Source of the DNA: a virus
Virus record (IMG/VR): IMGVR_UViG_3300025730_000002
Location: 1-43,389 of that record
Direction: 5' to 3' (one strand)
DNA length: 43,389 bases
Position numbers and translations under genes: made by a program. Below are positions 3,184-43,389 of the stretch, piece by piece. How positions within the stretch are numbered: position 1 is the stretch's first letter; every line of letters begins with the position of its first letter. The notes under the pieces are model-generated. The model was not told the origin of the DNA. It made no database searches and saw only the letters and a list, made by a program, of their open reading frames with translations.

Positions 3184-4347
3184 ATGGCTATTGATTTAAG
3201 AGAAATTGGGAAAAGTATAGAAGACACTTCCAGTAAGGTAGCAGACATATTATTAAGAAAGTATTTAACAGAGCAAGAAATAGAAGCAAGAAGAGCTGAA
3301 TTAGAAAAACAATTAGAACAACAGCGTCTTCTTCATGAAGAAAATTTAGCTTTTGAAAAGCAAAAATTAGATACAGATTTAGCAAGAAGAAAAGAGGAGT
3401 TAGATAAAACCCTTGCTCAAGAAAGAGATTTAAGTTTAAGAAGCGACAGAAGACAATACAAAGCTACTCTTATGAGTGGTGGTTTGTCACCAGAAGCAAG
3501 CGAATGGATGACAAGAATAGAGTTTGCTGCTAATCCAATGGAAAAACAAGTAGGCACTGCTATTATGCTAAAATACAATGAATTAATATCTAAAGCATTG
3601 CAGGGAAAAACACCTACTCAAGAAGAATTAAATCAATTACCCCCAGATTTAAGAACAGCATTCTGGAAGGATTATCAAAAGCATCGGCTTGCTGAAAGCC
3701 AGATACAGGAAAACTTATTGTCTGGATATGGAAGAATAGCTAATGTGCTTGGTAAAGATATAGAATCAGACCAAGAACTTTTTGAAGATATTAGAAAAAG
3801 AGAACTTGAGCAAAGAAAGAAACAACGAAAAGAAGTTGCTACTTCGATAGAAAAAATAAATAATGAAATAGAGAAATTAGATACAGCAATTGCAAATAAA
3901 GAACTTCAGTTAGCTAATAAATTATCACCTGCTGGACTCACAAGAAAAACTTTAGCAGAACTTACCAGTGGTATAGGAGAAGAAAGTGGTGATGTAGAAA
4001 AGGCAGTAAAAAAATTTACCCCAATTTTTGAAAAATATCCAGAAATACCAGCTTTACTAAATGAAATAAATAGGCTAAAAGCACAAAAAACTTCTTTAGA
4101 AAAAGATTATATGCGGGCACATAGTAAATTGCTTGAAACTACTGGAGTGCCAGAAGAGAATGTTGGCAGTGTAAATATAATGCAACCAGCACAACAGACA
4201 CAAGCAAGAAAAATTATAACTTCATCTCAAATAGATAGCTTAGTTAATGCCTGGATAAAAGAACATCCAGAGGCTGCTAAAGTAAGAGAAGATGTAAGAC
4301 AAACAATAATAAATGACTATAAAGAAAAAGGCTATATAATACAATGA
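3184..4347 (+). CDS. Coiled-coil virion protein (387 aa)
   Basis: AGGAG RBS. Heptad-like E/K/L/Q-rich sequence. ATGA overlap with the giant ORF downstream. Confidence 0.65.
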   Translation: MAIDLREIGKSIEDTSSKVADILLRKYLTEQEIEARRAELEKQLEQQRLLHEENLAFEKQKLDTDLARRKEELDKTLAQERDLSLRSDRRQYKATLMSGGLSPEASEWMTRIEFAANPMEKQVGTAIMLKYNELISKALQGKTPTQEELNQLPPDLRTAFWKDYQKHRLAESQIQENLLSGYGRIANVLGKDIESDQELFEDIRKRELEQRKKQRKEVATSIEKINNEIEKLDTAIANKELQLANKLSPAGLTRKTLAELTSGIGEESGDVEKAVKKFTPIFEKYPEIPALLNEINRLKAQKTSLEKDYMRAHSKLLETTGVPEENVGSVNIMQPAQQTQARKIITSSQIDSLVNAWIKEHPEAAKVREDVRQTIINDYKEKGYIIQ

Positions 4348-7300: not shown

Positions 7301-9431
7301 CTTAATAAAACCAAGACGGGGCGGTGTAATGCGTATCGGTATAGAAGGAGAGATATTTGATAAATTACCAGCTGATGCAAGTTTAGATGATGCTTTAAAA
7401 TTACTCCCACCAGACACACCTGTAATGATTTCTGGTGCTGGAGAAAGAGCAGTTAGATATACAGCTAAAGAATTACAAGATTTAATGGCACAAAAAGATG
7501 GCGGTATGGGAGTATTTGTTCCAGCTGTTCACTATTTTACTAAGAAAGGAATAGCTTTTAGAGATATCTATCTCACTGCTCTTGATGGAGTTGATGCTTA
7601 TAACAAACTTGTTAGAAGAGCTGATAAAGTTATTATTCCTGAAATGAAAAAGCTAACACCAAAAGAACAAGAAGATTTATTAATTTATTATTATTGGCAA
7701 CAAGCAGATATAAGACCAACTTTACAAAAAGCTTATGGTATTAATGAAGCACCTAAATTAAATGAAAAACAATTAAACATTGATAAACTTTTAAGAAGTG
7801 AGTTTGATGGCTGGCTAAAATCTATTAATACAGCAAGAGAAATACAGGGACTTGCTCCGATAACTGGAGTAGAAAACTATTTTCCAATAATGAGAGATAT
7901 TTCCAGCGATGGTTTATTATTAAATGCTTTATTTAATGAACCAAACCCAGTAAGAATACGCATAGCTTTTCAGAATATTAGAGACCCATTCTTAATAGAA
8001 AGAACACCAAACATAGAACCAATCAAATTTAATTTAGTGGAGATATATAGTAAGTATGTTCAGAAAACTGGAAGGTATGTTGCTAATGCTGAATTTCTTG
8101 CTAAAACAAAACTATTGTTAAGACCTATTTCTTTAATTGTTAATGGGTCATTAAAAACCTATAACTTACAAACAGAAAAGCCAAACATGTTTACTGAGCT
8201 ACAACGATATCAGCAAAGAGTAGCTTTTAGAGTAGTTCCTGATTTCATTGGCTATATGCAATCAGACCCTAAAAACCCATTTGTAAGAACTGCTGCGTTA
8301 ATAATCAATAAAAATTTAGCTGCCGCTACGCTTGCTTATAATCTAAGAAGTGCCTTAATCCAGCCAACAGCCATTGTAAACCTCACTCTTTTGTTTCCTT
8401 CCACAGACATTGCTTGGGCAATGAAAGCTGTGTTAAATCCGAAAAATAGACAATTAATAAATGATTTAAGTAAGCATTTACTTAATAGAAAATTTGATGT
8501 TGTTCAAGATTCTTTACAGAAAGAAGTTCCAGATTTATTTGGAGATGGAAATGCTCTAAGAAGAATTTGTAATAAAGGACTTAAAGGCTGGTTAGAAGTT
8601 AGTGAGAAAGTGTCAGAAATTGGTTTATATCCATTAAAAGAATTAGATTTTATTACTGCTCAAATTGGTGCTTTGACTGCTTATAGAAATGGAATAAAGA
8701 GGGGGTTAGGTGGAAAGGAACTACAAAGATTTATAGATGAAAGTTTAATTAAAACCCAAATATCTGGCAGCTTTATGGATGTCCCAAAAGCACAGCTTGG
8801 AGAACTACCAAAGCTGTTTAGTTTGTTTCAAACTTTTACTATTGGACAAATAAATTTAGCATACAATGAATTGATTAAGCCTACCCTTCATCCAAAGACA
8901 GGATGGAATAAAGAATATTTTAGAAAAGTTATGAGGTTTGGTTTATGGTCTATTTTGCTTAATATTTTATATGAAGATGTTTTAAAACTTCGTTCTCCAT
9001 TACCTACACCAGAAAGAGAAATAGCCAAACTTTTTAAAGGAGAACAAAATTTTGTAAAAACAACTTTTAATACCGCCAAAGAATTGGCTGAACAAATACC
9101 TTACATTGGGGCATCAGCAAGATGGTCAACGCCTTATAGAGCAGTAGAACCAACACCAGTTCTTCAAATATGGACAGATACCTGGAGAACTATGTCTAAA
9201 CTGACTGCTACGCAAAGCTTTAAAAATTTTAAAATTGAAGATTACACATTACTTCCAAGATGGCTTGGAGTTCCAGGAATAAGTCAGTTTGAAAAGAGTT
9301 ATAGAAGATATCTGAATGGAGCAAGCTGGGAAGAAATAGTTCTTGGAGTAAAGCCTGAAGAAGTTAGTGGTATAAAAGCTAAACAAAGAGCTACAGCAAG
9401 AGAATGGAAAAGAAAGAGGATAGCCAAATGA
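4344..9431 (+). CDS. Giant virion-internal/ejection-type protein (1695 aa)
   Basis: Longest ORF, with ATGA overlap to the upstream gene. Its position after the tail genes and three small internal-type proteins resembles a podovirus core/ejection module. CPVC-x9-CPHC zinc ribbon at about 7035-7085. No catalytic motif recognised. Confidence 0.7.
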   Translation: MSNGLVAPDLEEKLKKLTDTSIQTPETQIDSDLESKLLAITEQAKYGEEQQPTPAESLENKLMRITYPEGQPAATISAAPKESLWQKIKYAIGLEEEDKFTYEDVERAAALQGKEITPTTEYEKAKVMGVSLPTGKVILPSGEVKHDVGTGLTTAVVSGLARGITLGIPENLMRLVGKKEWASYYPETKADQISYAVGNLVGFVGSPIVKTFHKAFSNLTSKVISSETIGKAGQKFGAKGASGIKFLKEFVDNATTMATAFAVQTPITDKKDEYLKEVLNNAINGATVASVFQTVSLINPKLIEFVSPEGSKLITAINKKSSPFLFSVFRAGTAAAADSLLFSEQAQQPDLVDRIFNIGIAAYFGAKSQFLPAEAIAAQVHQEIARDTKKILKEMPEVAKAAKELEIKSRDSANTYLSADAEDQPFPKKIKILVKKTPKTPTEEPQYEVKEVDKYYGYQTNYNRKSEELGTLEKRNFLDMDIEKESYWDNHRKEAEKLTPDRNKIVILNALKKRIKVAKDAVARSHNIEEEKIGSVYNLFSYNLKGDDSYAVNLFPERTLAIKGDKLTPQQVEDFICRNIDILSNPLFSIRTQKGKDGHIILDIVRTFKNKDVAINTAKEYQQESIYYLGKKTKDKTGKFIVSNAEKIDVNLEAINSSSENLPTTPIQQRHLSKTEGKQVVEVFHFSSFIDDNIGWFTPQAMGLSKTNREISRVFYHKDRNAGLLPGQLPFLTFYTRTSPTIEPHLNIGKSLYRTEIALDDLFIAESGKALPSPQKLVKQGKLGVYFPGTGEVWLYTPINAVKVVDKFTDINWQSKQTYSGETLVDYLNTEVLKPTGKIVDDFNLRNISELENASNVSSVIQQVKNGELDSDTAYEEFLKKSKSVDDLKNRLLQVFKCPVCKKLTAPGDTCPHCGADIKTFSDNWKFYIDKLNKANPKETNKIIEDLTNTDDPAYQEQFLFDAGFIKDKQLKIPAGEIEGGKIKLFLIKPRRGGVMRIGIEGEIFDKLPADASLDDALKLLPPDTPVMISGAGERAVRYTAKELQDLMAQKDGGMGVFVPAVHYFTKKGIAFRDIYLTALDGVDAYNKLVRRADKVIIPEMKKLTPKEQEDLLIYYYWQQADIRPTLQKAYGINEAPKLNEKQLNIDKLLRSEFDGWLKSINTAREIQGLAPITGVENYFPIMRDISSDGLLLNALFNEPNPVRIRIAFQNIRDPFLIERTPNIEPIKFNLVEIYSKYVQKTGRYVANAEFLAKTKLLLRPISLIVNGSLKTYNLQTEKPNMFTELQRYQQRVAFRVVPDFIGYMQSDPKNPFVRTAALIINKNLAAATLAYNLRSALIQPTAIVNLTLLFPSTDIAWAMKAVLNPKNRQLINDLSKHLLNRKFDVVQDSLQKEVPDLFGDGNALRRICNKGLKGWLEVSEKVSEIGLYPLKELDFITAQIGALTAYRNGIKRGLGGKELQRFIDESLIKTQISGSFMDVPKAQLGELPKLFSLFQTFTIGQINLAYNELIKPTLHPKTGWNKEYFRKVMRFGLWSILLNILYEDVLKLRSPLPTPEREIAKLFKGEQNFVKTTFNTAKELAEQIPYIGASARWSTPYRAVEPTPVLQIWTDTWRTMSKLTATQSFKNFKIEDYTLLPRWLGVPGISQFEKSYRRYLNGASWEEIVLGVKPEEVSGIKAKQRATAREWKRKRIAK

Positions 9432-11614: not shown

Positions 11615-11766
11615 CAGTATTCTTTTTTGCCAATTATATTTTCTGCTATATCCGCATAGTTGTTTCTAAGAAACCATTTCCACTCAGACTTTTCAATAAT
11701 TCGTCCAATAAAGAAGCCTATTATCAGACCAGCCAGAACAGAAAGTATAATAATAATAACAATCAT
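11605..11766 (-). CDS. Small membrane protein (53 aa), below the ORF-track cutoff
   Basis: ATGA overlap with the upstream gene (11763-11766). Hand translation: MIVIIIILSVLAGLIIGFFIGRIIEKSEWKWFLRNNYADIAENIIGKKEYWCD, with an N-terminal TM helix. Confidence 0.5.
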   Translation of the reverse strand: MIVIIIILSVLAGLIIGFFIGRIIEKSEWKWFLRNNYADIAENIIGKKEYWCD

Positions 11767-12227
11767 CTCGACCCCCTCTTTAAGTTTTCTACTGCTTTTT
11801 CAAGCGTTGCTACTTGATTAATAGAATATCTATCGCATACAATATCAATATTTCCTTTTTTCCAAAATCCATCAGGGCAGACTACAATCAGCTTCTCTGG
11901 ACTTTGGCCTACAATTAAGCCAAACTCCAACAGAGTAATCGGCGATTTCGTGCCTGGCGAAAAATACATTATTATTTTTTTAGCCGCTTCCAGAGCTTTG
12001 AGTTCCCAAATCACCTGATTACAAAACTCTGGATTAGTGATTTTTTGCTCCCAACTTGAGTCCCAATCATCTCTACGTGGATTGAAAACAACCCAATCTG
12101 TGTCTTGAAGAAGCTTTTCTACTTTTGATTGCCAATTTTCTGCCATACCCATTTCAATGCTACCAGACAGAAAAACAGATTTAACCCCATTAGGAGGTAT
12201 CCAATCTAAGGGTTTAATAATTCTCAT
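11763..12227 (-). CDS. Nucleoside 2'-deoxyribosyltransferase-superfamily protein
   Basis: N-terminal VFLSGSIEMG, VVFNPRRDDW and a later ITLLEFG segment resemble the Ndt/DNPH1-like Rossmann family. Recognised by eye only. Confidence 0.55.
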   Translation of the reverse strand: MRIIKPLDWIPPNGVKSVFLSGSIEMGMAENWQSKVEKLLQDTDWVVFNPRRDDWDSSWEQKITNPEFCNQVIWELKALEAAKKIIMYFSPGTKSPITLLEFGLIVGQSPEKLIVVCPDGFWKKGNIDIVCDRYSINQVATLEKAVENLKRGSR

Positions 12228-12239
12228 TATTTTTATCCT

Positions 12240-12536
12240 TTATTTTTTATCAAAATCAAAACACTCAAAACTAATAATGGTATTAATATAATCTTTGCCA
12301 ACAAATATCTTACAATCCTTCTTACATTCTTTACATTTATCAAGCATTGTATCTTTAGGCACAGTTCCAACTTCTTCTGTCCACATGTGTATCTTTTCCA
12401 AAGCTTTGTCTATATCTTCTAAAGAAGTGTAGTCTTCTTCAAATCTTTTCATACACTCATCACTACAAAAAAACATGTGGTCTTTGTCTAATACTTTCTT
12501 ACAAAACCTGCAATACCTAACCTTGTTATTTTTCAT
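12240..12536 (-). CDS. Cys-rich zinc-ribbon protein (98 aa)
   Basis: CRFC..FCSDEC near the N-terminus and CKECKKDC near the C-terminus. Function unknown. Confidence 0.6.
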   Translation of the reverse strand: MKNNKVRYCRFCKKVLDKDHMFFCSDECMKRFEEDYTSLEDIDKALEKIHMWTEEVGTVPKDTMLDKCKECKKDCKIFVGKDYINTIISFECFDFDKK

Positions 12537-12900
12537 TTGGAATCTCCATTGTAAGTTTATACATATCTGTATAAATAGGTATGCCAGCTTCTGTAGCTAC
12601 CTTCAACTCTTTCTTTGAGCCTTTTGAATTTTCCCAACCAGGCAGCAGAAACACTGCATCACAAACAGTTAAAAATGATAAGCTCATTTCATAAAAAACT
12701 TCAATATCAAATTCTCCTGCACCATATACAGACAGTGGAAAATCAAAGATAGGAACAAACGGGGCATACCCATACCTTGCTAACCTTTTGGCTGCATCTA
12801 AAAATTTCATAAAATTTTTTCCGTATTCAAGAACTGGATTCTCTTCTTTGTTAGTTGGAGTAATGCTTCCAACAATGTAAATTCTTGTTCTCATTTTCAT
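12526..12900 (-). CDS. DUF4406-like protein (2'-deoxyribosyltransferase superfamily)
   Basis: IYIVGSITP.. and the motif DAVFLLPGWENSKGSKKELKVATEAGIPIY match the LPGWexSxG..E signature remembered for DUF4406. Confidence 0.6.
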   Translation of the reverse strand: MKMRTRIYIVGSITPTNKEENPVLEYGKNFMKFLDAAKRLARYGYAPFVPIFDFPLSVYGAGEFDIEVFYEMSLSFLTVCDAVFLLPGWENSKGSKKELKVATEAGIPIYTDMYKLTMEIPNEK

Positions 12901-13892
12901 TTTTTATCCTTTACTATATTATTTTTAAAATGCTGAATTCTTTTTTCAGCTATTTTAATGTATTCAGGTTCTTTCTCAATACCTATATAAGACATTCCTT
13001 CTAATAAAGCAGCAATTCCTGTTGTTCCAGAACCAATGAAGGGGTCAAGAACTACCCCACCTTTAGATGTAATAAGTCTAATTAAATATCTAATTAAAGC
13101 AATAGGTTTGACAGTAGGATGATTATTTTGTATTTTTCCATTACAGGTTCTTTCGTTGCTGCTTACTTTAGCACAATAAAAAAACTTGCTTACTTTTGCC
13201 CCTCTTTGTTTATCTAACTCTTCTGCTGCTTCTTCATCTAAAATAAAATTAGCTGGAAATCTCGATTGAGGATTACTGTCGGCAGTTCTTAGTTCGCTTC
13301 TAATTTTTCCCACAGGAGTATCTATATTATATTTTCCTTCAGGAAATGCTGATTTATCTTTTTGATTACAAGGTATTCTACAAGCACCAATGTTTAACCC
13401 ACCTACTCCCCACTTTAAAACATTATCAACTATACTTTTTTCTGATAATGGCTTTCTGGCCAAGCAGATTGGTTCGTGTGCTGGCTTTAAAGCTGTCCCC
13501 CAACCTTCAAAATCTTTTTCTTTATTTTTTCCATTTTTATCTAATTGCTTATTAATGTCCAAACTTTTAGGAAATCCAGAACCATATACCCACTCAATCA
13601 TATCCCTGATTTCAAATCCTGCATCCTCAATAGCACAGGCAAGTCTGTGATAAGTTCTTGTCCCACTAAAGGCAAGGAGAAATCCACCTGGTTTTAAAAC
13701 TCTTAAGCATTCTCTTGCCCATTTAAGTGTAAAATCATAATAACTATTTCTTTCTTGTTCAAACCTATCCCAATCTTTTCCCATAAATCTTAAACCATAG
13801 GGCGGGTCGGTTACTATACTATCAATAGAGTTGTTTGGAAATGTTTTAAGAACTTGTAAACAATCACCAGAATAAATTATATTAGTTTTCAT
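12897..13892 (-). CDS. DNA methyltransferase, beta class (N6-adenine or N4-cytosine)
   Basis: Motif IV IVTDPPYG is N-terminal and motif I VLDPFIGSGTTGIAA is C-terminal. The IV-before-I order indicates beta class. Confidence 0.9.
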   Translation of the reverse strand: MKTNIIYSGDCLQVLKTFPNNSIDSIVTDPPYGLRFMGKDWDRFEQERNSYYDFTLKWARECLRVLKPGGFLLAFSGTRTYHRLACAIEDAGFEIRDMIEWVYGSGFPKSLDINKQLDKNGKNKEKDFEGWGTALKPAHEPICLARKPLSEKSIVDNVLKWGVGGLNIGACRIPCNQKDKSAFPEGKYNIDTPVGKIRSELRTADSNPQSRFPANFILDEEAAEELDKQRGAKVSKFFYCAKVSSNERTCNGKIQNNHPTVKPIALIRYLIRLITSKGGVVLDPFIGSGTTGIAALLEGMSYIGIEKEPEYIKIAEKRIQHFKNNIVKDKK

Positions 13893-19808: not shown

Positions 19809-20372
19809 TTAAATTTGTTCGTTAGGTTCAGGAATTTCTATTCCTGAAGCCAAACATTCTTTAAACCATTCTTCTTTAGCTTTTTTTAAATCTGCTAATG
19901 CTTCTTCTACTGTTCTACCATGCCCACAAACATTTTTAAACCCAAACTCACTTGTCCCTAATTCTGGCAACCAAGCAGTAAAATATTGACCATCATTATG
20001 AAATTCGATATTTATTTTGTATGGTAAATGCATATAATAATCTAATGCATCAGCCTCAACAGCTTCAGTCATCTTATTTGCTATTTCATTCTTTTCTTTG
20101 GTGCTATATATAGCACCATTTTCTATAATTTTTGTATCCTCATAGGGAGCAACTCTTTTCCTATATAATTCAAGTTTAACAGATTCAAGCACTCCTATAA
20201 CAGAATTATATACTGAAAAGTGTCCTTCATAATCATTGAGGTATCCTAAACAAATTCTATAAAGAATATAAGCTAAATCTCCAATTAGAAAACTTTTTGT
20301 TTCAAGCTCCTCAATTAAATCGTCAATGAATAAATCAATGTTTTCTCTTTTTTGCTGACTAATATAAGGCAT
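19809..20372 (-). CDS. Two-domain protein with C-terminal HicB-like domain
   Basis: C-terminal INIEFHNDGQYFTAWLPELG...GHGRTVEEALADLKKAKEEWFKECLASGIEIPEP fits the HicB/UPF0150 pattern. The N-terminal domain is unknown. Confidence 0.6.
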   Translation of the reverse strand: MPYISQQKRENIDLFIDDLIEELETKSFLIGDLAYILYRICLGYLNDYEGHFSVYNSVIGVLESVKLELYRKRVAPYEDTKIIENGAIYSTKEKNEIANKMTEAVEADALDYYMHLPYKINIEFHNDGQYFTAWLPELGTSEFGFKNVCGHGRTVEEALADLKKAKEEWFKECLASGIEIPEPNEQI

Positions 20373-20761: not shown

Positions 20762-20790
20762 TATTATATCATTTTTTATAGGCTTTGTCA
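20762..20790 (-). promoter_or_regulatory. Consensus sigma70 promoter internal to the leftward block
   Basis: The minus strand reads gacTTGACAaagcctataaaaaatgaTATAAT with a 17-nt spacer. It precedes ATG 20732 and sits at the edge of the GC-rich island. Confidence 0.7.
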
Positions 20791-21009
20791 AGTCTCTTTA
20801 TCATCATCCAGATGAGCATCTACCCACGCATCATACTTCTCATCGGCTCGACTCATCTTCTCATCATACTGATAGTCAAAATAATCACAATCCAGACAGG
20901 CTTCACCACTCTCCAGGCACTCTTCAATACGGGGACAATCCTCTGGACAGAGGAAATCATCTGGAACATTTCCGTAAGTTAAAGAATTGTCTGGTTTTCT
21001 TGTTAGCAT
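20788..21009 (-). CDS. Small acidic Cys-rich protein (73 aa) in a GC-rich island
   Basis: Cys-rich segment CPEDCPRIEECLESGEACLDC followed by an acidic tail. AGGAGAG RBS. Confidence 0.55.
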   Translation of the reverse strand: MLTRKPDNSLTYGNVPDDFLCPEDCPRIEECLESGEACLDCDYFDYQYDEKMSRADEKYDAWVDAHLDDDKET

Positions 21010-21041: not shown

Positions 21042-21257
21042 CTATTGAACCACATTGTAATCATGGTTTTCAACAAATGCGGCGCTACCATCCACATGTC
21101 CAGCCCCGTGGCAGACAGGGCAGAAGTCTTGATATATTTTAGGAAAATCGTTTTCATCGGGTAGTGCCTTCGAAGGCCCGACTAAGGCCTTAGTAAAATC
21201 AGGCGGCTTAATTTTATTGATAACTCCTCGCCCATGACAAAGCTCGCAAACCTTCAT
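21042..21257 (-). CDS. DnaJ-type zinc-finger (2x CxxCxGxG) small protein
   Basis: CELCHGRG and CPVCHGAG motifs. GGAGAAAG RBS. Lies in the GC-rich island. Confidence 0.6.
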   Translation of the reverse strand: MKVCELCHGRGVINKIKPPDFTKALVGPSKALPDENDFPKIYQDFCPVCHGAGHVDGSAAFVENHDYNVVQ

Positions 21258-21963: not shown

Positions 21964-22362
21964 CTAAATTATATCACTTTTTGTCTTGCTTGTCAAGCCT
22001 TTATCAAAAATTATCTTTTGTTTTGCTTTGCTGTATATCCCTTTTTTAAAAATCCAGTTACCTTTTATTTTCTTGGCAAGCCAAACCTCAGCTTTACAAG
22101 CCTCGTTTTCTGGAAAGCAATATTTATTAAACTCTCTTACTCTTTTTTGTAAATCTTTATTAGTTGTTATCTGAATAAACCTAACATCATTTTTGCTAAC
22201 AGCAATTATATCAGCTCCAAAAATATCCTCTCCTTTACTTCTCCAGCCTCGCTTTGTTTTTATGGCATAAGACTTAACACAATAAACAGAATACCCAGCC
22301 TTTTCAAGCAGTGGTTTAGCAACTTGAAAAACTAAATAGTTATGTCTCTTTTTATAATTCAT
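21964..22362 (-). CDS. Restriction-endonuclease-fold (Hjc/YraN-like) protein, possibly a resolvase
   Basis: GEDIFGADIIAVSKNDVRFIQITT resembles the D..(D/E)xK core, but QIT stands where ExK is expected. The call is weak. Confidence 0.4.
   Translation of the reverse strand: MNYKKRHNYLVFQVAKPLLEKAGYSVYCVKSYAIKTKRGWRSKGEDIFGADIIAVSKNDVRFIQITTNKDLQKRVREFNKYCFPENEACKAEVWLAKKIKGNWIFKKGIYSKAKQKIIFDKGLTSKTKSDII
21968..21996 (-). promoter_or_regulatory. Consensus sigma70 promoter internal to the leftward block
   Basis: The minus strand reads ggcTTGACAagcaagacaaaaagtgaTATAAT with a 17-nt spacer. It overlaps the 3' end of ORF 21964..22362 and precedes ATG 21939. Confidence 0.7.
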
Positions 22363-22373
22363 TCTTTATTCTG

Positions 22374-22760
22374 TTATCTTATTCCTATCTTTTGTAGTCT
22401 ATTATATAAATTTATTCTTTTTATACACTTTTCTTTACTCCACATTTTCCACATAAAAGGCGGGCAAATATAAGTTCCAAGACATTCAATAGCAAACTCT
22501 TCAGAAAAATACTCTTCAGGACACAATCGCTTAGCTATTCTCCAGGCTAACAGTTCATCAGCAAGTAGTTTGTTAGTGTTTTTATTTTCATCTGTTTCTT
22601 TAGCCTTTAGCTTCTGTCGAGTTATTAAATGTCCGATTTCGTGAAAGAAAGATGAAATCAGTTTTTCTTTTGACATTCCATAGTCAATCCAGATTTCTTT
22701 ATATCTGGTATCAACAAAAGATGTTTCTGGTCTCTCTATGTTTTGTATTACTACAATCAT
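22374..22760 (-). CDS. Minimal HExxH metallopeptidase-like protein (ImmA/IrrE, M78-like), paralog 1
   Basis: FFHEIGHL, then E-LLAW-RIAKRLCP about 25 residues downstream (compare the M78 pattern HExxH...ExxAxxFAxxLLxP). Same length (128 aa) as 24878..25264 and clearly alignable to it. Confidence 0.6.
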   Translation of the reverse strand: MIVVIQNIERPETSFVDTRYKEIWIDYGMSKEKLISSFFHEIGHLITRQKLKAKETDENKNTNKLLADELLAWRIAKRLCPEEYFSEEFAIECLGTYICPPFMWKMWSKEKCIKRINLYNRLQKIGIR

Positions 22761-22796
22761 TTTTTTATTTTTTTCATTTAGACTTTAACAAGTAGT

Positions 22797-23057
22797 TTAC
22801 TTTTCTAATGGAAAGTTTTTTGTATCATAAGCATCAAAACCAAGTTTTTTTAATGCTTCAAACTCTGTTTTATCCCAGAATGTTTTTTCTGCTATAATTT
22901 GAGAAGGCTTAATTTTATAATCATAAAAATATAACTCTACTAATTTTTTAATTATTCTACCTGGAAATTTATCACGATATCCTATACCAGCCATTAAATA
23001 TTTTTTTTCGTTCCTTCTTTCTATCCAGAATTGTTTTCCTAATTTTGCTCGTTTCAT
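22797..23057 (-). CDS. Hypothetical basic protein (86 aa)
   Basis: AGGAG RBS, early operon. Confidence 0.55.
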   Translation of the reverse strand: MKRAKLGKQFWIERRNEKKYLMAGIGYRDKFPGRIIKKLVELYFYDYKIKPSQIIAEKTFWDKTEFEALKKLGFDAYDTKNFPLEK

Positions 23058-23083
23058 TTTATGTCTCCTTTTTAATTAAAATT

Positions 23084-23269
23084 TTAGACTTTTTTGTTTT
23101 TATTTTTTCTTTCTTCTTCTTTAATTAATTGCTTTACTCTTTTATACATTTTTTTATCATCAGCAACTAATCCACCTAAAGTTTGTAGTAAAGATAGCAT
23201 TGTCGAAAAATTTAATCTCTTTCCGTCCTGGTCAATAATAGCTAATTCATCAAAATAGACCTTAAACAT
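23084..23269 (-). CDS. Hypothetical protein (61 aa)
   Basis: AGGAG RBS, early operon. Confidence 0.5.
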   Translation of the reverse strand: MFKVYFDELAIIDQDGKRLNFSTMLSLLQTLGGLVADDKKMYKRVKQLIKEEERKNKNKKV

Positions 23270-23293
23270 AGTTTGTCTCCTTTATATTAAAAT

Positions 23294-23668
23294 TTATTCG
23301 TTATCAAAGTTTATTTCCAGTTCGTCTAACATATCGTCCAGCTCCTCTAACTGCTCGTCAATATAACTACTACTAAAGTTAGTAAGTTCTACGTCGTAAG
23401 CTATAGGGTCAACTGCTTTTAAGACTTCAGAAGGCAGATAACTTAATTCTCCGATTTGACAAAGAAGATTAGAATCATCTAAAAATTCGTCAAAAAGCCT
23501 TTCTATTTCCTTGTCTGCTCCATTTTCTACTAATTCAAGCTTGTTAATTTTTTCTTGTATTTCGTCTATCAGCTCGTCCTGCTCTTTAATGTCTTTTCCT
23601 TCTTTTTCAGCCCTTGTTAAAAGCTCTGTTAATCTCTCTTTTCCTTCATTGATTGTTTTAATTTTCAT
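23294..23668 (-). CDS. Strongly acidic promoter-proximal early protein (124 aa)
   Basis: First gene after the consensus promoter at 23703-23731. AGGAG RBS. E/D-rich throughout, with coiled-coil-like character. Confidence 0.65.
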   Translation of the reverse strand: MKIKTINEGKERLTELLTRAEKEGKDIKEQDELIDEIQEKINKLELVENGADKEIERLFDEFLDDSNLLCQIGELSYLPSEVLKAVDPIAYDVELTNFSSSYIDEQLEELDDMLDELEINFDNE

Positions 23669-23702
23669 TTTAAATCTCCTTTATTTTTCATTTTATAAGT
23701 CC

Positions 23703-23731
23703 ATTATAGCATATTTTTTATGACTTGTCAA
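23703..23731 (-). promoter_or_regulatory. Consensus sigma70 promoter, leftward early operon
   Basis: The minus strand reads TTGACA-17 nt-TATAAT with TGn extended -10 (ggcTTGACAagtcataaaaaatatgcTATAAT). It lies about 35 nt upstream of ATG 23668. Confidence 0.8.
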
Positions 23732-23766
23732 GCCTTTTTTGGCTTTACAAGCCTTGTTTTGGCTTT
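23729..23766. repeat. Two tandem AAGCC-N6/7-GGCTT mini-hairpin units abutting the -35 of the leftward early promoter
   Basis: CAAGCCTTTTTTGGCTTT (23729-23746) and CAAGCCTTGTTTTGGCTTT (23748-23766). The first overlaps the -35 TTGACA on the opposite strand. Confidence 0.7.
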
Positions 23767-23887
23767 TTATTAATTTTTCTTTTATAATGTTTATCATAGT
23801 TTTTAATCTGCTCACATTGCCTTACTGATTTATTCTGTTTTTCATTATACTAATTATATCATATTTTTATATTTTTGTCTATACTTA

Positions 23888-23910
23888 AATCCTATTAATT
23901 CTATAGGATT
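23888..23910. promoter_or_regulatory. 23-bp palindrome AATCCTAT-N7-ATAGGATT (copy L1)
   Basis: AATCCTATtaattctATAGGATT has perfect 8-bp arms. Confidence 0.8.
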
Positions 23911-23946
23911 AATAATATTTATTAGCATTGTTTTTTATATAGATAA

Positions 23947-23996
23947 ATAAATTATTGTTTCTTTCTTTTATATATAGGAAAGAAACAATAATTTAT
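23947..23996. repeat. Perfect 19-bp inverted repeat (hairpin/cruciform), 12-nt loop
   Basis: ATAAATTATTGTTTCTTTC (23947-23965) is the exact reverse complement of 23978-23996. No flanking T-run is present, so it is not a canonical terminator. Confidence 0.9.
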
Positions 23997-24344
23997 ACTT
24001 TTATACTTATATACCTATATATAGCTATATAGCTATATAAATCAATTCATGCTAACTATATAGCCATATGGCGAACGTTCCAAATACCAGGCGGACATAA
24101 ATTTTTTACTTTTTCTTGAAAAAAAACGTTCTACAATCGCTGTAGAGCCACTAATTCTGTCCGTCCATAGTTAGACTACGTGGAAAAAATCTTTTTTGCT
24201 CTACGAGCTTTTAAACGCTAAAAATGGCAATATGCACAAAAAGTAGTCAGTAAAAAATAGCTAAAAATAGATAGAATGGATAGAAAAAATAGAAAGAGTG
24301 GAAAAAATTAAATCTTTTTTGTTAACGTTAACATTAATTATATT

Positions 24345-24397
24345 AATCCGATAAAATTAGTAAGATTAAAAATAAATCCTATTAAATTAGTCGGATT
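24345..24397. promoter_or_regulatory. Two further copies of the 23-bp palindrome (L2, L3), 30 bp apart, upstream of the rightward early promoter
   Basis: AATCCGATaaaattagTAAGATT (24345-24367, degenerate) and AATCCTATtaaattagTCGGATT (24375-24397). Confidence 0.65.
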
Positions 24398-24448
24398 AAA
24401 TTTTTTGTAAGTTATTGATAATAAATAAGATAAAATTATAAAAAAAGC

Positions 24449-24477
24449 TTGACAAGGATTTTAAAATATGATTAGAT
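24449..24477 (+). promoter_or_regulatory. Sigma70-type promoter, rightward early cassette
   Basis: gcTTGACAaggattttaaaatatgaTTAGAT: perfect -35, 17-nt spacer, TGn plus a 4/6 -10. It lies 22 nt upstream of ATG 24499. Confidence 0.6.
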
Positions 24478-24498
24478 GGTATCATAGGATGGCGGAAA

Positions 24499-24873
24499 AT
24501 GATTCTAACAGTAATACCAAGTAAAGCAGGAATAAGTTACGCTGAAGAAAAAAATAATACTATTTATATTTTTTGTAAGCAAGAAAAATCCGATATGATT
24601 TTAACTTTAAGCCATGAAATAAGCCATTTATTTTTAAAGAAAAGATTTTTTAAAAATGAAGTAATTAATACCTTAGCAATAGAAACTATGGCATGGGTAA
24701 CAGCTAAAAAAATCTGTTTAGATAAATACTGGAATGAAAAAATAGCCATTGAAAAATTAAAAACTTACTTTGATTTTTATAGCTATCAAAAAAATATTTT
24801 TCTAAAGTTGTTTTTAAGATTTTTGTTTTTAGTAAGCAAATTTAAAATATGGTTAGATAATATTATAGGATAA
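24499..24873 (+). CDS. HExxH metallopeptidase-like protein, divergent paralog 2
   Basis: SHEISHLF followed by ETMAWVTAKKIC. First gene after the promoter at 24449-24477. The C-terminal third is hydrophobic and divergent. Confidence 0.5.
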   Translation: MILTVIPSKAGISYAEEKNNTIYIFCKQEKSDMILTLSHEISHLFLKKRFFKNEVINTLAIETMAWVTAKKICLDKYWNEKIAIEKLKTYFDFYSYQKNIFLKLFLRFLFLVSKFKIWLDNIIG

Positions 24874-24877
24874 TAAA

Positions 24878-25264
24878 ATGATTGTTGTTGTTAAATACTC
24901 TTACCAAAAAAATATAGCTTACTCAGACAGACAAACTAACACAATTTATATCGATTACTCAATGTCTAAAAACAATTTTATTAATTGTTTTTATCATGAA
25001 CTAAGCCATTTAATTCTGAAAGAAAAGTTTGATTGCAAATGGTATGATACTATAAAAAATACTAATAGATTAATTGAATCTGAACTGATGGCAAGTCGAA
25101 TTGCTAAAAGGTTATGTCCAGAAAAATATTTTTCAGAAAAATATTTAATAAGCTGTTTACACAGTTATATCTGCCCGCCTGGCATGTGGAAAGCATGGAC
25201 AAAAAGTTTTTGTAAAGAGAGAGTAAGTATTTTTAGAAAAATTAAAAAGATAGGCATAAAATAA
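24878..25264 (+). CDS. Minimal HExxH metallopeptidase-like protein (M78-like), paralog 3
   Basis: YHELSHL, then ELMASRIAKRLCPEKYFSE...YICPPGMWK. Shares MIVV.., IDYxMSK, KNTN, RIAKRLCPE, YICPP, KIGI with 22374..22760. Confidence 0.6.
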   Translation: MIVVVKYSYQKNIAYSDRQTNTIYIDYSMSKNNFINCFYHELSHLILKEKFDCKWYDTIKNTNRLIESELMASRIAKRLCPEKYFSEKYLISCLHSYICPPGMWKAWTKSFCKERVSIFRKIKKIGIK

Positions 25265-25386
25265 TGAAAGAAAAAATTTTAAAGAAAGGAGATAAGAAAA
25301 AAGAAAAAACTAAAACAAAAAGTTTACTGGCTGGCACTAAAAATTTTAGTGCTATGGCAAGGGAAAAATTTTTAATAGGAGTTTAA
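25264..25386 (+). CDS. Possible 40-aa lysine-rich peptide, below the ORF-track cutoff
   Basis: TAATG stop/start overlap at 25262-25266. It fills the gap to the next gene. The sequence is low-complexity K-rich, so this is uncertain. Confidence 0.3.
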   Translation: MKEKILKKGDKKKEKTKTKSLLAGTKNFSAMAREKFLIGV

Positions 25387-26226: not shown

Positions 26227-26430
26227 ATGAAAGCTTATATTTTATCATCTGAATTTGGAACTGTCCAGATAGGCAGTATAGTTTTTCAACCGCGCAATCA
26301 TGCCAGGTTTAAGGCAATGGATAGAAAAAATTTAAAAGGTTGTCCAGTTGTTAATGTGCCAGATAAGTCAATGACTTCTGCCAGGTTAGCATTATTGTTT
26401 TATGGACTTCAGAAAGCTAATAAATTATAA
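26227..26430 (+). CDS. Hypothetical early protein (67 aa), last gene of the cassette
   Basis: AGGAG RBS. Followed by the strong terminator at 26441-26482. Confidence 0.55.
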   Translation: MKAYILSSEFGTVQIGSIVFQPRNHARFKAMDRKNLKGCPVVNVPDKSMTSARLALLFYGLQKANKL

Positions 26431-26440
26431 GCTAACAGAA

Positions 26441-26482
26441 AAAAGAAAAATAGCCAGGTCTAAAAAACCTGGCTATTTTTTT
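26441..26482. terminator. Bidirectional Rho-independent terminator
   Basis: A 10-bp stem ATAGCCAGGT/ACCTGGCTAT with a 7-nt loop. It is flanked by an A-run (26441-26450) and a T7 run (26476-26482). It lies directly after the last early-cassette gene. Confidence 0.85.
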
Positions 26483-26565
26483 ATATGTCCGTTATTTTTT
26501 AGTATGAAAAAATACAATGTTATTATATCTATATAGCTATATAGATATATAGATATAAAGATATA

Positions 26566-26630
26566 TATATAGCATAGTAATAGATAACATAGTATAGATA
26601 GCATAGTATCTATATAGATAGCATAGTATC
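26566..26630. repeat. Four tandem iterons TAGATA(G/A)CATAGTA (14-20 bp period) in an AT-rich tract
   Basis: tatatAGCATAGTAa / TAGATAACATAGTA / TAGATAGCATAGTATCtata / TAGATAGCATAGTATC. Followed by a 70-bp C/T-only-rich tract (26628-26698). Confidence 0.8.
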
Positions 26631-26695
26631 TTTTTCTTTTTATCTTTCTTTTCTTTCTATTATTAATATCTTTCTTATCTTTCTTTTTTCTTTTT

Positions 26696-26724
26696 ACCAT
26701 TGCTTATTCCTATTTACTTGTCAA
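26696..26724 (-). promoter_or_regulatory. Possible leftward promoter reading into the iteron region
   Basis: The minus strand reads caTTGACAagtaaataggaataagcAATGGT: perfect -35, 17-nt spacer, weak -10. The spacer contains an ATAGGAAT half-site. Confidence 0.35.
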
Positions 26725-26744
26725 TGCTAATAGTTAGCTATGCT

Positions 26745-26960
26745 AACTAATTTTATGCAAGCTCGAATTAATCCTATAGAAATACTAGGATTTAAATCAT
26801 AGTAAAGTATAATATATTAATCCTATAGCTTTACTCGGATTTATTTAAGAGCCAGCTATAATATACATTAATCCTATCGATTTAATAGGAATTAAAAATA
26901 GAGCCAAGCATAATCCAAAGGATATTATATTATTCCTATCAGAATAGTAGGAATTGAAAG
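26745..26960. repeat. Tandem array of four ~50-bp units, each containing the 23-bp palindrome (R1-R4)
   Basis: Palindromes at 26770-26792, 26819-26841, 26870-26893 and 26932-26954, spaced 49, 51 and 62 bp. The inter-palindrome segments are also related (aagAGCCAGCTATAATATAcATT versus tagAGCCAAGCATAAT..). Confidence 0.85.
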
Positions 26961-27097
26961 GGGGCATCACCCGTTGAGGTAAATTTTTTAAAAGCCAGGC
27001 TGAATCATCATCTACACACCTACACTATATTTCTATTGAGAAATTTCAGACTTTAAATGAAATTTCGGTTAAGAAAATCTGGGGGCTGAAGATTAAA

Positions 27098-27285
27098 AGA
27101 CTACTCTTAAGTAGACTACTCATGATAAGTATTCTATACTCGACACTTTTCAAATTTTGCAGTATATGTCGAACATAATTCGACTTTCCTGTTGTAGTCA
27201 ATGTTGTAATTTTCGTGTTGTAGTCTAAATCATCTTCGTGATTTAACGATTTGTTTTGCAAATCGTGATTAGCGGATGTAGTCTA
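27098..27285. repeat. Cluster of TAGACTAC (x2, direct) and GTAGTC(TA) (x3, inverted) motifs with embedded hairpins
   Basis: AGACTAC 27098-27104, TAGACTAC 27112-27119, GTAGTC 27194-27199, GTAGTCTA 27220-27227 and 27278-27285. Hairpins: CTACT-ctta-AGTAG (27101-27114), GTCGAA-cataa-TTCGAC (27168-27184), ACGATTTG-ttttg-CAAATCGT (27246-27266). Confidence 0.8.
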
Positions 27286-27335
27286 ATTCATTTTAGCATG
27301 AATAAATTTTATTCACACTATGAATAAATTGCTAA

Positions 27336-27353
27336 TTAGGAATTAATTCCTAA
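27336..27353. promoter_or_regulatory. 18-bp perfect palindrome TTAGGAATT/AATTCCTAA (same half-sites, arms inverted, no spacer)
   Basis: It lies about 28 bp upstream of the TTGACA at 27381 and about 62 bp upstream of the consensus promoter at 27415. Confidence 0.8.
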
Positions 27354-27414
27354 ATGGTTTAACTAATTTGGGATTTATTCTTGACATAACCTGTAAAAAT
27401 TTGTAAGACACCAC

Positions 27415-27443
27415 TTGACAAAACAAGAAAAATGTGTTATAAT
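27415..27443 (+). promoter_or_regulatory. Consensus sigma70 promoter, lysis block
   Basis: cTTGACAaaacaagaaaaatgtgtTATAAT: perfect -35 and -10, 17-nt spacer, TGn. The downstream ATAGTTATAGTGGGAGA resembles the downstream region of the promoter at 29918. Confidence 0.8.
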
Positions 27444-29917: not shown

Positions 29918-29946
29918 TTGACAAAAGTGAAAAAATATGTTATAAT
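29918..29946 (+). promoter_or_regulatory. Consensus sigma70 promoter, packaging/structural block
   Basis: cTTGACAaaagtgaaaaaatatgtTATAAT: perfect -35 and -10, 17-nt spacer, TGn. Followed by ATATATAATGGGAGA. Confidence 0.8.
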
Positions 29947-37233: not shown

Positions 37234-37644
37234 ATGATAGCTCCTGGTTGGTTTGTTAGAGAACTTAAACTTATTGATAAAGATTATTTTTGTGTATGGG
37301 ACGGAAGATTGCATAGATGGATGATACGCTGGTGGAATACTCCACATATTGAAAAGAGAGATATAAAAAATTCTGAAGATTTTAGAAAGAAAAGTATTTT
37401 AGTAATGAAGGTAGCTAAAGAAGATGGTAATGGAAAAGATATTGGATATAGAGACCTTGACCAACGGGCTTTAACTACACTTCGTAGAAGGAAATGGTTA
37501 AGTAATTTATCCGCTGAAAAATTGATAAGAATGTTAGATAATGCTAATGAAGAAAATCAGAATAAGACAGATGAAGAAATAAGAGATATGATAAGAGATG
37601 CTGCCACTATTAGCTATAATGCTATGAAAAGGATTTGGTGGTAA
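37234..37644 (+). CDS. Hypothetical head-associated protein (136 aa)
   Basis: AGGAG RBS. Lies between the capsid and adaptor-like genes. Confidence 0.55.
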   Translation: MIAPGWFVRELKLIDKDYFCVWDGRLHRWMIRWWNTPHIEKRDIKNSEDFRKKSILVMKVAKEDGNGKDIGYRDLDQRALTTLRRRKWLSNLSAEKLIRMLDNANEENQNKTDEEIRDMIRDAATISYNAMKRIWW

Positions 37645-37646
37645 AA

Positions 37647-38234
37647 ATGACAAGAGAAGATTTTAGGGCTTATGTTAGAAGTTTAATTGCAGAACCTTAT
37701 GCATCTTATTGGACAGACCCTGAAATAGATGCTTATACTGATGTAGCATTAATTTTATTGCTTAATGAATTCTGGTATCTTTTAAAAAAGACTTATAAAA
37801 AAACCGCTTATTTATCTATTACTTCTGGAAATGATACAATTGATTTACCTGCTGATTGTTTAAAAGTTCTTTCTATTAAGATAAAAGATAATCCAATGCA
37901 GGGGTTTGATTATATTCCTGAAGATGCTGAAGATTATTATGAAAAAAATGAATTGCCTGGCTGGACATTTGAAGAAGGAAAAATAAAAATTAATCCTGTT
38001 CCTATGGAAAGTAAAGCAGATTATCTTAAAATAAAATATTTACCTAAAATTACTTTTGAAAATTTACCTGATTGTCTCTTTCCATTATTAGCTGTAAGAA
38101 CAATAATTCAAGCAAAGATAAAAGATGAGAATGTTCCTGTTTATATTATGAGGCTTGAAGAACAATACAAACAAGCTGCTATGATTTTTTTAAATAATGT
38201 TCAAACGCAAAATGAGGAGATGCTTACAGAATAA
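37647..38234 (+). CDS. Head-tail adaptor/connector candidate (195 aa)
   Basis: ATG 37647 lies 2 nt after the upstream stop; the track start 37635 is TTG. Called by its position between the capsid and tail genes only. Confidence 0.5.
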   Translation: MTREDFRAYVRSLIAEPYASYWTDPEIDAYTDVALILLLNEFWYLLKKTYKKTAYLSITSGNDTIDLPADCLKVLSIKIKDNPMQGFDYIPEDAEDYYEKNELPGWTFEEGKIKINPVPMESKADYLKIKYLPKITFENLPDCLFPLLAVRTIIQAKIKDENVPVYIMRLEEQYKQAAMIFLNNVQTQNEEMLTE

Positions 38235-42967: not shown

Positions 42968-43389
42968 ATGGCTGTATATGAAGGAACATTAAATAACAGT
43001 ATCGGCGGGCTAATTGCTATGCTTGATACCCAGCTTGTCAAGAACGACAAGTGGTCTATTTACGATGATGCCGCTGGAACTAATTGTCATGTCTATAAAA
43101 ATGATAGCCCAACTGAAAATTCATTGTTCTATCTGAAAGTAGATGACAATTATGTTGGCTATGCAATCATAGAATTATGGGAAGGATGGGATGCTGTAAA
43201 CCATGTTGGAGTAGGCAAGTCGTTAACTAAAGGTTCTGGCGGGACAAATTTGCTATATATCAGAAAAGCTGCTCAAGCTTATAAACTTATGCTGAATAAT
43301 TTAAGATTTATACTGATACAAGTTGGCGTTGCTTTTTCTTCTTATGTTGGACAGCCAAAGCGATTTGATGAATCTAAAAATCAACCGAT
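42968..43389 (+). CDS. Tail-fibre/virion protein, 5' part of a junction-spanning gene (continues at base 128 after collapsing the overlap)
   Basis: ATG at 42968 follows AGGAG (42954-42958). The ORF is open to the window end and in frame with 1..536. The joined gene is 295+536 nt, giving 276 aa. Confidence 0.8.
   Translation, partial: MAVYEGTLNNSIGGLIAMLDTQLVKNDKWSIYDDAAGTNCHVYKNDSPTENSLFYLKVDDNYVGYAIIELWEGWDAVNHVGVGKSLTKGSGGTNLLYIRKAAQAYKLMLNNLRFILIQVGVAFSSYVGQPKRFDESKNQP
43263..43389. repeat. Right copy of 127-bp exact terminal direct repeat
   Basis: Identical to bases 1-127. Confidence 0.95.

Follow-up and report, generated by a model that had tools for sequence, protein, structure and literature searches.

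Three paralogous minimal M78-like metallopeptidases without a detectable repressor partner on either side of the divergent promoters of an apparently virulent phage

The 43,389-nucleotide (nt) viral sequence IMGVR_UViG_3300025730_000002 (IMG/VR; positions 1 to 43,389, here called the window) encodes three small paralogous proteins, c1, c2 and c3, on either side of a divergent promoter region. Judged from sequence profiles, they belong to a divergent subfamily of the M78 peptidases that present Pfam thresholds miss. M78 peptidases decide the induction of prophages or integrative and conjugative elements (ICEs), the DNA-damage response, or the expression of defence operons and, to our knowledge, all those that have been characterised are tied to a cognate XRE repressor. 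We propose that c1–c3 are catalytic-domain-only peptidases, among the first proteins expressed, which would act on proteins supplied in trans by the host or by co-resident elements. We regard this proposal as evenly poised between right and wrong.

The three genes had been described in a first-pass annotation of the DNA, and open reading frames (ORFs) of exactly those coordinates and lengths are present (Table 1). The two 128-aa copies do align end to end, as had been claimed: c1 and c2, on opposite strands, are gapless over all 128 residues with 48% identity (BLASTP E = 2e-48). c3 aligns with c2 over residues 1–97 (37% identity, E = 6e-14), beyond which the c3 tail is shorter and hydrophobic. 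HE[IL][GS]H was found at residues 40–44 in 3/3 window proteins, as was the distal motif E69-x2-A72-x-R/V-x-A76-K77-R/K-L/I-C80, with its Glu 25 residues after the second His, in agreement with the earlier description. A hidden Markov model (HMM) of the family detected these three copies in the window and no others. At residues ~95–120 of c3, a hydrophobic, basic stretch (NIFLKLFLRFLFLVSKFKI) stands in place of the ICPPxMWKxW of c1 and c2. It is conserved in the c3 orthologs P0005–P0007, and may form an amphipathic or membrane-associating tail.

The motif is strictly conserved in relatives. A word-indexed search of 5.8 billion proteins returned 7 clusters only, and an exhaustive HMMER search of 1.84 billion representatives returned 74 proteins at E <= 1e-3, which are 84–209 aa long (mostly 110–170 aa). 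Across 67 aligned relatives the mean column identity is 15%; H40, E41, H44 and E69 are invariant, A72 and K77 are nearly so, and the consensus reads HELGH-(24)-E-x2-A-W-R-x-A-K-S-x-C-K-x2-Y-W-x-E. A working gluzincin needs two His residues, a distal Glu ligand and a catalytic Glu, so the presence of all four in 67/67 sequences rules out a chance HExxH. Loss of the HExxH residues in relatives, named in the first-pass annotation as an outcome that would speak against a protease, was not seen.

A scan of IMG/VR with patterns of the close family found no relative. The cultured virulent jumbo Pseudomonas phage PA5oct and about ten of its relatives do encode a member, EST35_0391, which matches at an hhalign probability of 93% (E = 3e-7). 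Its neighbours are annotated 'hypothetical protein', with a tRNA cluster alongside. PA5oct is thus a cultured system in which the function of the family can be tested.

Are these proteins M78 peptidases? Single-sequence searches gave sub-threshold matches. PF06114 scored 17.2 bits for c1, 18.5 bits for c2 and nothing for c3, with a gathering cut-off of 22, and c1 matched the PHROGs family phrog_87 'metallo-protease' (E = 1.6e-4). Ten of the 67 relatives matched PF06114 at E <= 0.01. Among the seven with listed bit scores, P0010 alone passed the Pfam cut-off (25.9 bits), and its membership in the family is clear (E = 1e-15 to the close-family profile). Profile–profile comparison by hhalign gave a stronger match. 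The close-family profile (A2) matched a profile of bona fide M78 peptidases (A5), built from 21 PF06114-positive homologs of the peptidase domain of a bacterial protein, here called the L014 protein, with a probability of 95.3% and E = 2.1e-8. The match covers 98 columns, from the strand that precedes the active-site helix through HExxH and the Glu helix to positions past them. The broad-family profile (A3) matched A5 with a probability of 67% (E = 5e-5), and the A2 HMM matched the L014 protein itself directly (E = 1e-6). In these alignments E69 is in register with the third-ligand Glu of M78, at a His-to-Glu spacing of 25 residues compared to 27 in A5; the spacing in CapP is also 27 residues (H101/E128; PMC13228613). 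Sequence-profile searches of the PDB returned nothing significant, or only zincins at E >= 0.12.

The assignment to an M78-like family made in the first-pass annotation is thus upheld by the profile match, by P0010 and by the register of the third ligand. Taken together, the profiles indicate that c1–c3 and their relatives are a divergent M78 subfamily lying below present Pfam thresholds, which agrees with the precomputed Pfam annotation, where the entry for every relative is '-'.

The L014 protein, encoded in a Cloacimonadota metagenome-assembled genome (Table 1), was the sole confirmed, bona fide M78 match when 185,579 species' genomes were scanned with the family pattern. Its helix-turn-helix (HTH) domain is sub-threshold (HTH_3, 18.2 vs 23 bits), and it matches RmrA of the RosmerTA system over its full length (PDLC03948, 70 bits); its contig stops shortly past the gene. 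RmrA was also the best PADLOC match of c2 and c1 (E = 8e-5 and 9e-4), with only the peptidase domain aligned; most PADLOC M78 models are RmrA, which biases this result. The L014 match may be a clue to the host lineage or to where the domain came from, and Cloacimonadota is a lead from a single domain-level match.

Structure prediction gave a weaker indication. An AlphaFold2 (AF2) model of c2, made from a 20-sequence alignment, had a mean confidence (pLDDT) of 83.4 and a predicted template-modelling (TM) score of 0.75. It comprises three short strands, helix 31–46 with HExxH, helix 62–79 with E69, and 2–3 more helices, a modelled layout of the zincin type. The top-ranked Foldseek matches in the PDB were selecase, abylysin, jannalysin, IrrE/PprI, a Mycobacterium XRE-COG2856 regulator, ArdC, SPRTN and anthrax lethal factor. 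The IrrE/PprI matches are weak (E = 0.03–0.9, TM 0.34–0.49). In BFVD the best matches (E = 2e-3 to 2e-2) were phage proteins of small size, several of which, such as one from Bacillus phage PBS1, carry the annotation 'IrrE N-terminal-like domain', and the named matches in the first dozen were all small phage IrrE-like or peptidase-annotated proteins. A non-peptidase fold, which the first-pass annotation had named as refuting, did not emerge: the top Foldseek ranks were all zincin peptidases, albeit as weak matches. On the model alone, we would not place the family.

The genome that carries these genes is complete. Its first 127 bases (1–127) are identical to its last 127 (43263–43389), so that the assembly closes into a circle of ~43,262 bp. 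The minus arm (9.8–23.7 kb) encodes DNA polymerase A, a DNA methyltransferase, exonucleases, a primase-helicase and two nucleoside 2-deoxyribosyltransferase-like proteins. The plus arm encodes a spanin, an endolysin, TerS, TerL, a P22-like portal, an SU10-like capsid protein and tail proteins, the last wrapping round to 1–9.4 kb. A nucleotide search against 50,697 phage records found no match to the window, and the TerL sequence reaches no more than 35% identity with that of any deposited phage. A tRNA scan of the window found no tRNA genes.

No repressor partner was detected. Pfam and PHROGs scans of nearly all substantial window ORFs (all but a 1695-aa ORF and a few small ones) found no integrase, recombinase or HTH protein. 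The scanned ORFs of at least 180 aa (all except 4344–9431 and 37635–38234) either match families of replication, lysis, packaging or structural proteins or have no match. The earlier statement that the phage has no HTH protein, integrase or lysogeny module therefore holds for the complete genome at profile-HMM sensitivity, at which the phage is apparently virulent. The neighbours of c1, c2 and c3 carry no HTH or informative domain in Pfam or PHROGs, and the 86-aa and 132-aa neighbours of c1 have no Pfam, PHROGs or PDB sequence match.

The same is seen in relatives. In precomputed Pfam annotation of 13 loci (L001–L013), no HTH gene lies next to a family member, so the cognate partner that had been named as redirecting the interpretation was not found adjacent. 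Close relatives lie on short contigs with the same small genes. More distant settings include a phage-like contig, in which P0024 is the first gene past a 780-bp divergent gap, and a 90-kb phage contig, in which P0083 lies near a strand-switch. By sequence, the family appears to be consistently partner-less. An immunity module of the ImmA/ImmR type was considered and rejected: its defining features, a repressor partner and a temperate context, were searched for at profile-HMM sensitivity and not found.

The genes lie close to strong promoters. The extended consensus TTGACA-N14-TG-N-TATAAT occurs at five perfect sites, all co-oriented with genes and several sharing an A-rich spacer. With up to two mismatches there are nine promoter matches vs 1.2 expected, a count reached by 0/100 shuffles. 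Evidently, the phage uses a host sigma-70-type RNA polymerase. The promoter set is very strong, of host type and phage-wide, with some sites ahead of the lysis and packaging genes. The first leftward unit contains genes for 124-, 61- and 86-aa proteins, then c1 and the gene for the 132-aa protein, and ends at the next perfect promoter. The rightward leader (24440–24491) is an inverted copy of the leftward one (23689–23740; repeat I1), 71% complementary over 52 nt. Both leaders carry AAAAAAGCTTGACAAG, and the rightward −10 is TG-extended but weaker. The promoter-proximal placement described in the first-pass annotation is correct for all three genes (Table 1). Its claim of divergent early promoters stands as regards the promoters, with two near-perfect or perfect leftward sites and a TTGACA leader on the right; that they are early is suggested by their position.

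The divergent spacer (23816–24498) is a 680-bp, AT-rich region with a GC content of ~26%. Its sequence features suggest that it could be an origin and/or operator region. It contains a hairpin palindrome of 20 pairs (G-T allowed) at 23948–23995, TATAGCTATATAGCTATA repeats at 24004–24069, and a GC-richer island without an ORF at ~24060–24250. An Rfam scan of the spacer and of the window found no match.

Table 1. Positions of the genes, promoters and other elements discussed (window coordinates unless another sequence is named; aa, amino acids).
Feature	Position	Strand	Description
c1, mini-M78 paralog	22374..22760	minus	128 aa; gene 4 of first leftward unit; motif HEIGH 40-44, E69
c3, mini-M78 paralog	24499..24873	plus	124 aa; gene 1 of rightward unit; active-site residues intact
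c2, mini-M78 paralog	24878..25264	plus	128 aa; gene 2 of rightward unit
Orphan 40-aa ORF	25264..25386	plus	KTKTKSLLAGTKNFSAMAREKFLIGV, equal to the C-terminus of P0006/P0007; alignment with L011/L012/L004 resumes at 25274
Second promoter-leader copy	24841..24877	plus	TTTAAAATATGGTTAGAT..ATAGGAT, 37 nt, inside c3 3' end; resembles 24460-24498
P_L1, leftward promoter	23703..23731	minus	TTGACA-17-TATAAT with TG, 12/12; perfect extended consensus
Second leftward promoter-like site	23853..23881	minus	11/12 with TG
P_R, rightward promoter-like site	24449..24477	plus	TTGACA-N14-TG-A-TTAGAT; -10 weak (3/6)
Perfect promoter bounding c1 unit downstream	21968..21996	minus	extended consensus
Perfect promoter	20763-20791	minus	extended consensus
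Perfect promoter	27415-27443	plus	extended consensus
Perfect promoter	29918-29946	plus	extended consensus
Operator-like palindrome, left side	23885..23913		AATCCTAT..ATAGGATT; repeats I2, I5, D1
Operator-like inverted repeat upstream of P_R	24343..24399		TTAATCCGA..TCGGATTAA; kin to left palindrome; repeats I7, D1, D3
Likely terminator of c3/c2 unit	26446..26480		16-bp-stem hairpin flanked by A and T runs
L014 protein	L014 3987-4955		322 aa, Cloacimonadota; M78 (65.8 bits) behind N-terminal XRE-type HTH
EST35_0391	L020 2393-2878 = MK797984.1 266570-267055		161 aa, 'hypothetical protein' of phage PA5oct

The slot for the first gene in the rightward unit is a site of cassette exchange, as its content varies among related contigs aligned to the region by BLAST. 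A survey of co-occurrence found c3 only, c2 only, or a fourth paralog with c3. In L011 and L012, the promoter region and c3 (96% nt identity) are joined straight to window position 25274, and there is no c2. In L009 and L010, the same promoter is joined straight to c2 (98.6%), which becomes the first gene, and there is no c3; L009 has an extra, unrelated 115-aa gene after c2 (1225–1572). L004 has an extra first gene (427–1032, 201 aa), and then c3. The 201-aa protein is the fourth, divergent family member (FLHELGH..E-F-Q-A-W-M-V-A; family HMM E = 6e-6), with an N-terminal extension and a weak match to a 'putative metallopeptidase' DUF.

The joint in the window can be located. Comparison with L011 and L009 shows TTTAAAATA microhomology at the c2 cassette joint, within the 3' end of a c3-type gene, and the second copy of the promoter leader, also in the 3' end of c3, marks the recombination event that placed the c2 cassette. 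c3 has 124 aa compared to 146–151 aa for P0005–P0007, which read on into the equivalent of 25264–25386. Insertion of the c2 cassette thus shortened c3 and stranded its old C-terminus as the orphan ORF. We also considered that the c3/c2 tandem is an assembly chimera of strain variants. This was rejected, as the sequence shared at the joint, a microhomology of 9 nt and a diverged leader copy of 37 nt, is much shorter than the 127 nt by which the assembly overlaps.

Sequence divergence revealed a different pattern for c1. Compared with orthologs of 88–99% aa identity, its ratio of non-synonymous to synonymous divergence (dN/dS) is 0.06–0.13, and 0.06–0.10 at dS 0.74–0.91, so c1 is under strong purifying selection. 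An arms-race signature, that is a raised dN/dS, was tested for, and c1 shows the opposite. For c3, dN/dS is 0.33–0.44, from about 20 substitutions only. Across 21964–22760, comparison with L018, L002 and L003 gave a dS of 0.74–0.98 for c1 and the 132-aa gene, and of 0.07–0.08 for the adjacent 86-aa gene. This sharp contrast indicates that c1 and the 132-aa gene were exchanged between lineages as a unit. The block exists as two old allelic lineages within nearly identical flanks, with a sharp recombination boundary. Overall, the evolutionary signature read from these sequences is one of cassette gain, loss and exchange and not of fast amino-acid change.

What might c1–c3 act on? What the sequences show is that the genes are paralogous and homologous to M78, that the motif is invariant, that no partner is detectable, that the cassettes are mosaic and that selection is purifying; that the proteins are catalytic, when they are made and, most of all, what they target are inferences. 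In the proposed mechanism, zinc would be bound by H40 and H44, which share a helix, together with E69 from the long helix that follows, while E41 would serve as catalytic base. With no HTH, GAF or other sensor domain, the enzymes would be constitutively active, their activity being set by expression alone. Host RNA polymerase would make them at the start of infection, from the first divergent units, as their position suggests. The substrates would be XRE-type HTH regulators, whether these belong to the host, to resident prophages or ICEs, or to the toxin–antitoxin (TA) or defence modules built on such regulators. The known M78 substrates are ImmR, DdrO, CapH and the cI-like repressors cut by MpaR (PMC12828697, PMC13228613, PMC6872733). 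As the complete genome has no detectable repressor, integrase or HTH protein, the substrates are most likely supplied in trans. The diverged paralogs and the turnover of cassettes suggest that specificities differ, and these might be matched to different hosts. By analogy with the known systems it is plausible, as the first-pass annotation suggested, that c1–c3 target host repressors or regulators of defence, which would make this an anti-defence or host-takeover set. A bolder version, which we think rather unlikely, is that the paralogs are a diversifying arsenal of early counter-defence proteases, or mimics of the RmrA peptidase domain, each for a different XRE-linked module of a host or prophage, and that phages swap specificities at the first-gene slot through short-homology recombination.

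Several observations weigh against the proposal of proteolysis in trans. The window proteins fall below the Pfam M78 gathering score. Foldseek scores against the PDB are weak (E 0.02–0.5, TM 0.35–0.49), and they weakened in the second AF2 model although its pLDDT rose from 71.7 to 83.4; because a better model did not give better scores, we claim no specific structural subfamily. One relative, P0033 (L005), lies in an ordinary bacterial chromosome, adjoining RsgA, with no adjacent HTH gene and a Crp-type regulator two genes upstream. HTH proteins too divergent for Pfam may hide among the many small ORFs. The purifying selection on c1 is unlike the rapid change common in arms-race genes. Cleavage of a CapH-type XRE repressor would raise defence expression, the opposite of the interest of a phage (PMC13228613). 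Finally, Rir, the nearest size-matched relative, shows no detectable cleavage (PMC12828697).

This last point bears on an alternative that we consider unlikely, in which c1–c3 keep the M78 fold and metal site and act as stoichiometric anti-repressors, sequestering monomers of a dimeric host or prophage regulator and cutting nothing. The 122-aa Rir of phage TP-J34 consists of the peptidase domain alone, has kept its motif intact and blocks dimerisation of Crh, with cleavage not shown (PMC12828697), and c1–c3 match it in size and architecture. However, the catalytic base E41 is invariant in 67/67 relatives, as catalysis predicts (although Rir keeps the motif too), and no cognate repressor gene adjoins any family member. 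A role inside the phage is unlikely to a similar degree. Here, the enzymes would act on proteins of the phage itself, for example to clear away early proteins at an early-to-middle switch, by processing or degrading them, or would cleave a non-canonical phage regulator bound at the palindromes. Each promoter has an operator-like palindrome beside it, which makes it probable that a DNA-binding regulator works in this region. Moreover, c1 always travels with the downstream 132-aa gene, in a block of the same high dS, and is under strong purifying selection. Set against this, no DNA-binding protein is detectable in the genome, the genes are outside the head-morphogenesis module, and the copy content of the plus arm varies among close relatives, which fits accessory genes over core developmental ones.

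The RmrA matches raise a further alternative, that a free-standing RmrA-type peptidase domain mimics an antitoxin, neutralising a toxin or defence effector once the host copy is lost in infection. In its favour, the only bona fide M78 protein from the 185,579 genomes resembles RmrA over its full length, its subfamily is the one that hhalign matched at 95%, and RmrA leads the PADLOC matches of c2 and c1. As these PADLOC matches are weak, confined to the generic peptidase domain and drawn from M78 models that are mostly RmrA, and as no RmrT-like gene was seen, we think antitoxin mimicry quite improbable. It is very improbable indeed that the proteins are not peptidases, with an incidental HExxH or a domain that hydrolyses a non-protein substrate. 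The sub-threshold Pfam scores, the absence of a significant PDB sequence match and the Foldseek TM of < 0.5 would be expected from such proteins. The invariance of the motif across 67 relatives and an M78 profile match that runs over 98 columns, beyond the motif, would not; and the weak Pfam, PHROGs and PDB-sequence matches, like the top-ranked fold matches, are all to zincin peptidases.

How new is this family? The features named in the first-pass annotation, a minimal peptidase and no detectable partner, were both seen, but they are less unusual than it supposed, since Rir, ImmA and the stand-alone phage IrrE-like proteins of BFVD are already known; neither 'minimal' nor 'orphan' is new per se. 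What is new is a coherent subfamily, invisible to Pfam and marked by a Glu-helix signature of its own, together with its presence in three copies in one small virulent-looking genome, a documented cassette slot and a link to a cultured phage. If proteolysis in trans is correct, phages use a switch-cutting M78 enzyme offensively, against regulators that they do not themselves encode, with possible forced induction of rival prophages, disarmed TA or defence modules, or rewired host stress responses. If the arsenal or mimic version were true, the family would define a new class of anti-defence genes, for which EST35_0391 of PA5oct offers a test system in culture. The proteins are small and easily expressed, and with an unambiguous catalytic mutant (E41A) and the PA5oct member the family can be tested. 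Even if the targets prove trivial, the annotation puts ~70 'hypothetical' clusters, mostly missed by Pfam, into M78.

Other features of the window were noted. Three genes on the minus strand (11763–12227, 12526–12900 and 12897–13892) comprise a pair of nucleoside 2-deoxyribosyltransferase-like genes (PF15891, E = 8e-30; phrog_355, E = 1e-16) adjoining the DNA methyltransferase gene; together they may form a nucleotide-salvage or DNA-modification module. A 187-aa protein (19809–20372, minus strand) contains DUF6899 (E = 3e-23), and its C-terminus is HicB/UPF0150-like. A 71-aa protein (21042–21257, minus strand) has two CxxC pairs, and weak matches to DnaJ-type zinc-finger and Q-like antiterminator families. 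Between the first rightward unit and the lysis genes, ~1 kb (26430–27432) has no plus-strand ORF; it opens with the bidirectional-looking terminator of the c3/c2 unit and closes at a perfect promoter (Table 1).

Several groups of known zincins can be compared with c1–c3. The minigluzincins abylysin, jannalysin and selecase, soluble archaeal proteins of ~105–110 aa, hold the top Foldseek ranks in the PDB, with weak fold scores (E 0.02–0.3, TM 0.35–0.46) and no sequence-profile match. With ImmA/ImmR of ICEBs1 and IrrE/DdrO, c1–c3 share profile homology and the arrangement of HExxH followed ~25–27 residues on, in the next helix, by Glu. ImmA is likewise a peptidase-domain-only protein, of 169 aa and without a GAF domain (PMC12828697). 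The phage proteins differ in their length (124–128 aa, compared to 169 for ImmA and ~280 for IrrE), in their Glu helix (E-x2-A-W-R-x-A-K-x2-C in the family, E-x2-(A/C)-N-x-(F/L)-A in M78), and in having neither an adjacent or genome-encoded XRE repressor nor a lysogeny or ICE context.

RmrA of RosmerTA and CapP are proteins of 240–400 aa with HTH and/or GAF domains, found in host defence loci, whereas the phage proteins are bare peptidase domains. The predicted zinc ligands of the phage family are arranged as in CapP (PMC13228613), and no conserved Cys-switch loop is seen between its HExxH and Glu. RmrA itself, of ~360–400 aa, has an N-terminal HTH, the M78 domain and a C-terminal region, and lies beside RmrT; c1–c3 have neither an HTH nor a toxin-like neighbour. 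Rir of Streptococcus thermophilus phage TP-J34 is likewise phage-encoded, limited to the peptidase domain and of near-equal size (PMC12828697). It serves a temperate-phage switch with its partner Crh and is perhaps non-catalytic, whereas here there are three copies, no partner and a virulent-looking genome.

The SprT- and ArdC-like zincins of jumbo phages occur in 1–3 copies with a patchy distribution that varies between close relatives, and were read as targeting the host (Iyer et al. 2021, PMC7824862). The logic of variable copies is the same here, although the family (M78, not SprT or ArdC) and the size of the phage (43 kb) differ; the jumbo phage PA5oct carries a member of the c1–c3 family, and ArdC is among the weak fold matches. 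MpaR, a DUF955/M78 protein of the Listeria monocin locus, cleaves in trans the repressors of other resident elements (PMC6872733). It is SOS-stimulated and lies next to its own cI-like repressor in a chromosomal element, while c1–c3 lie in a lytic-looking phage, but its action in trans is the mode that we propose for c1–c3.

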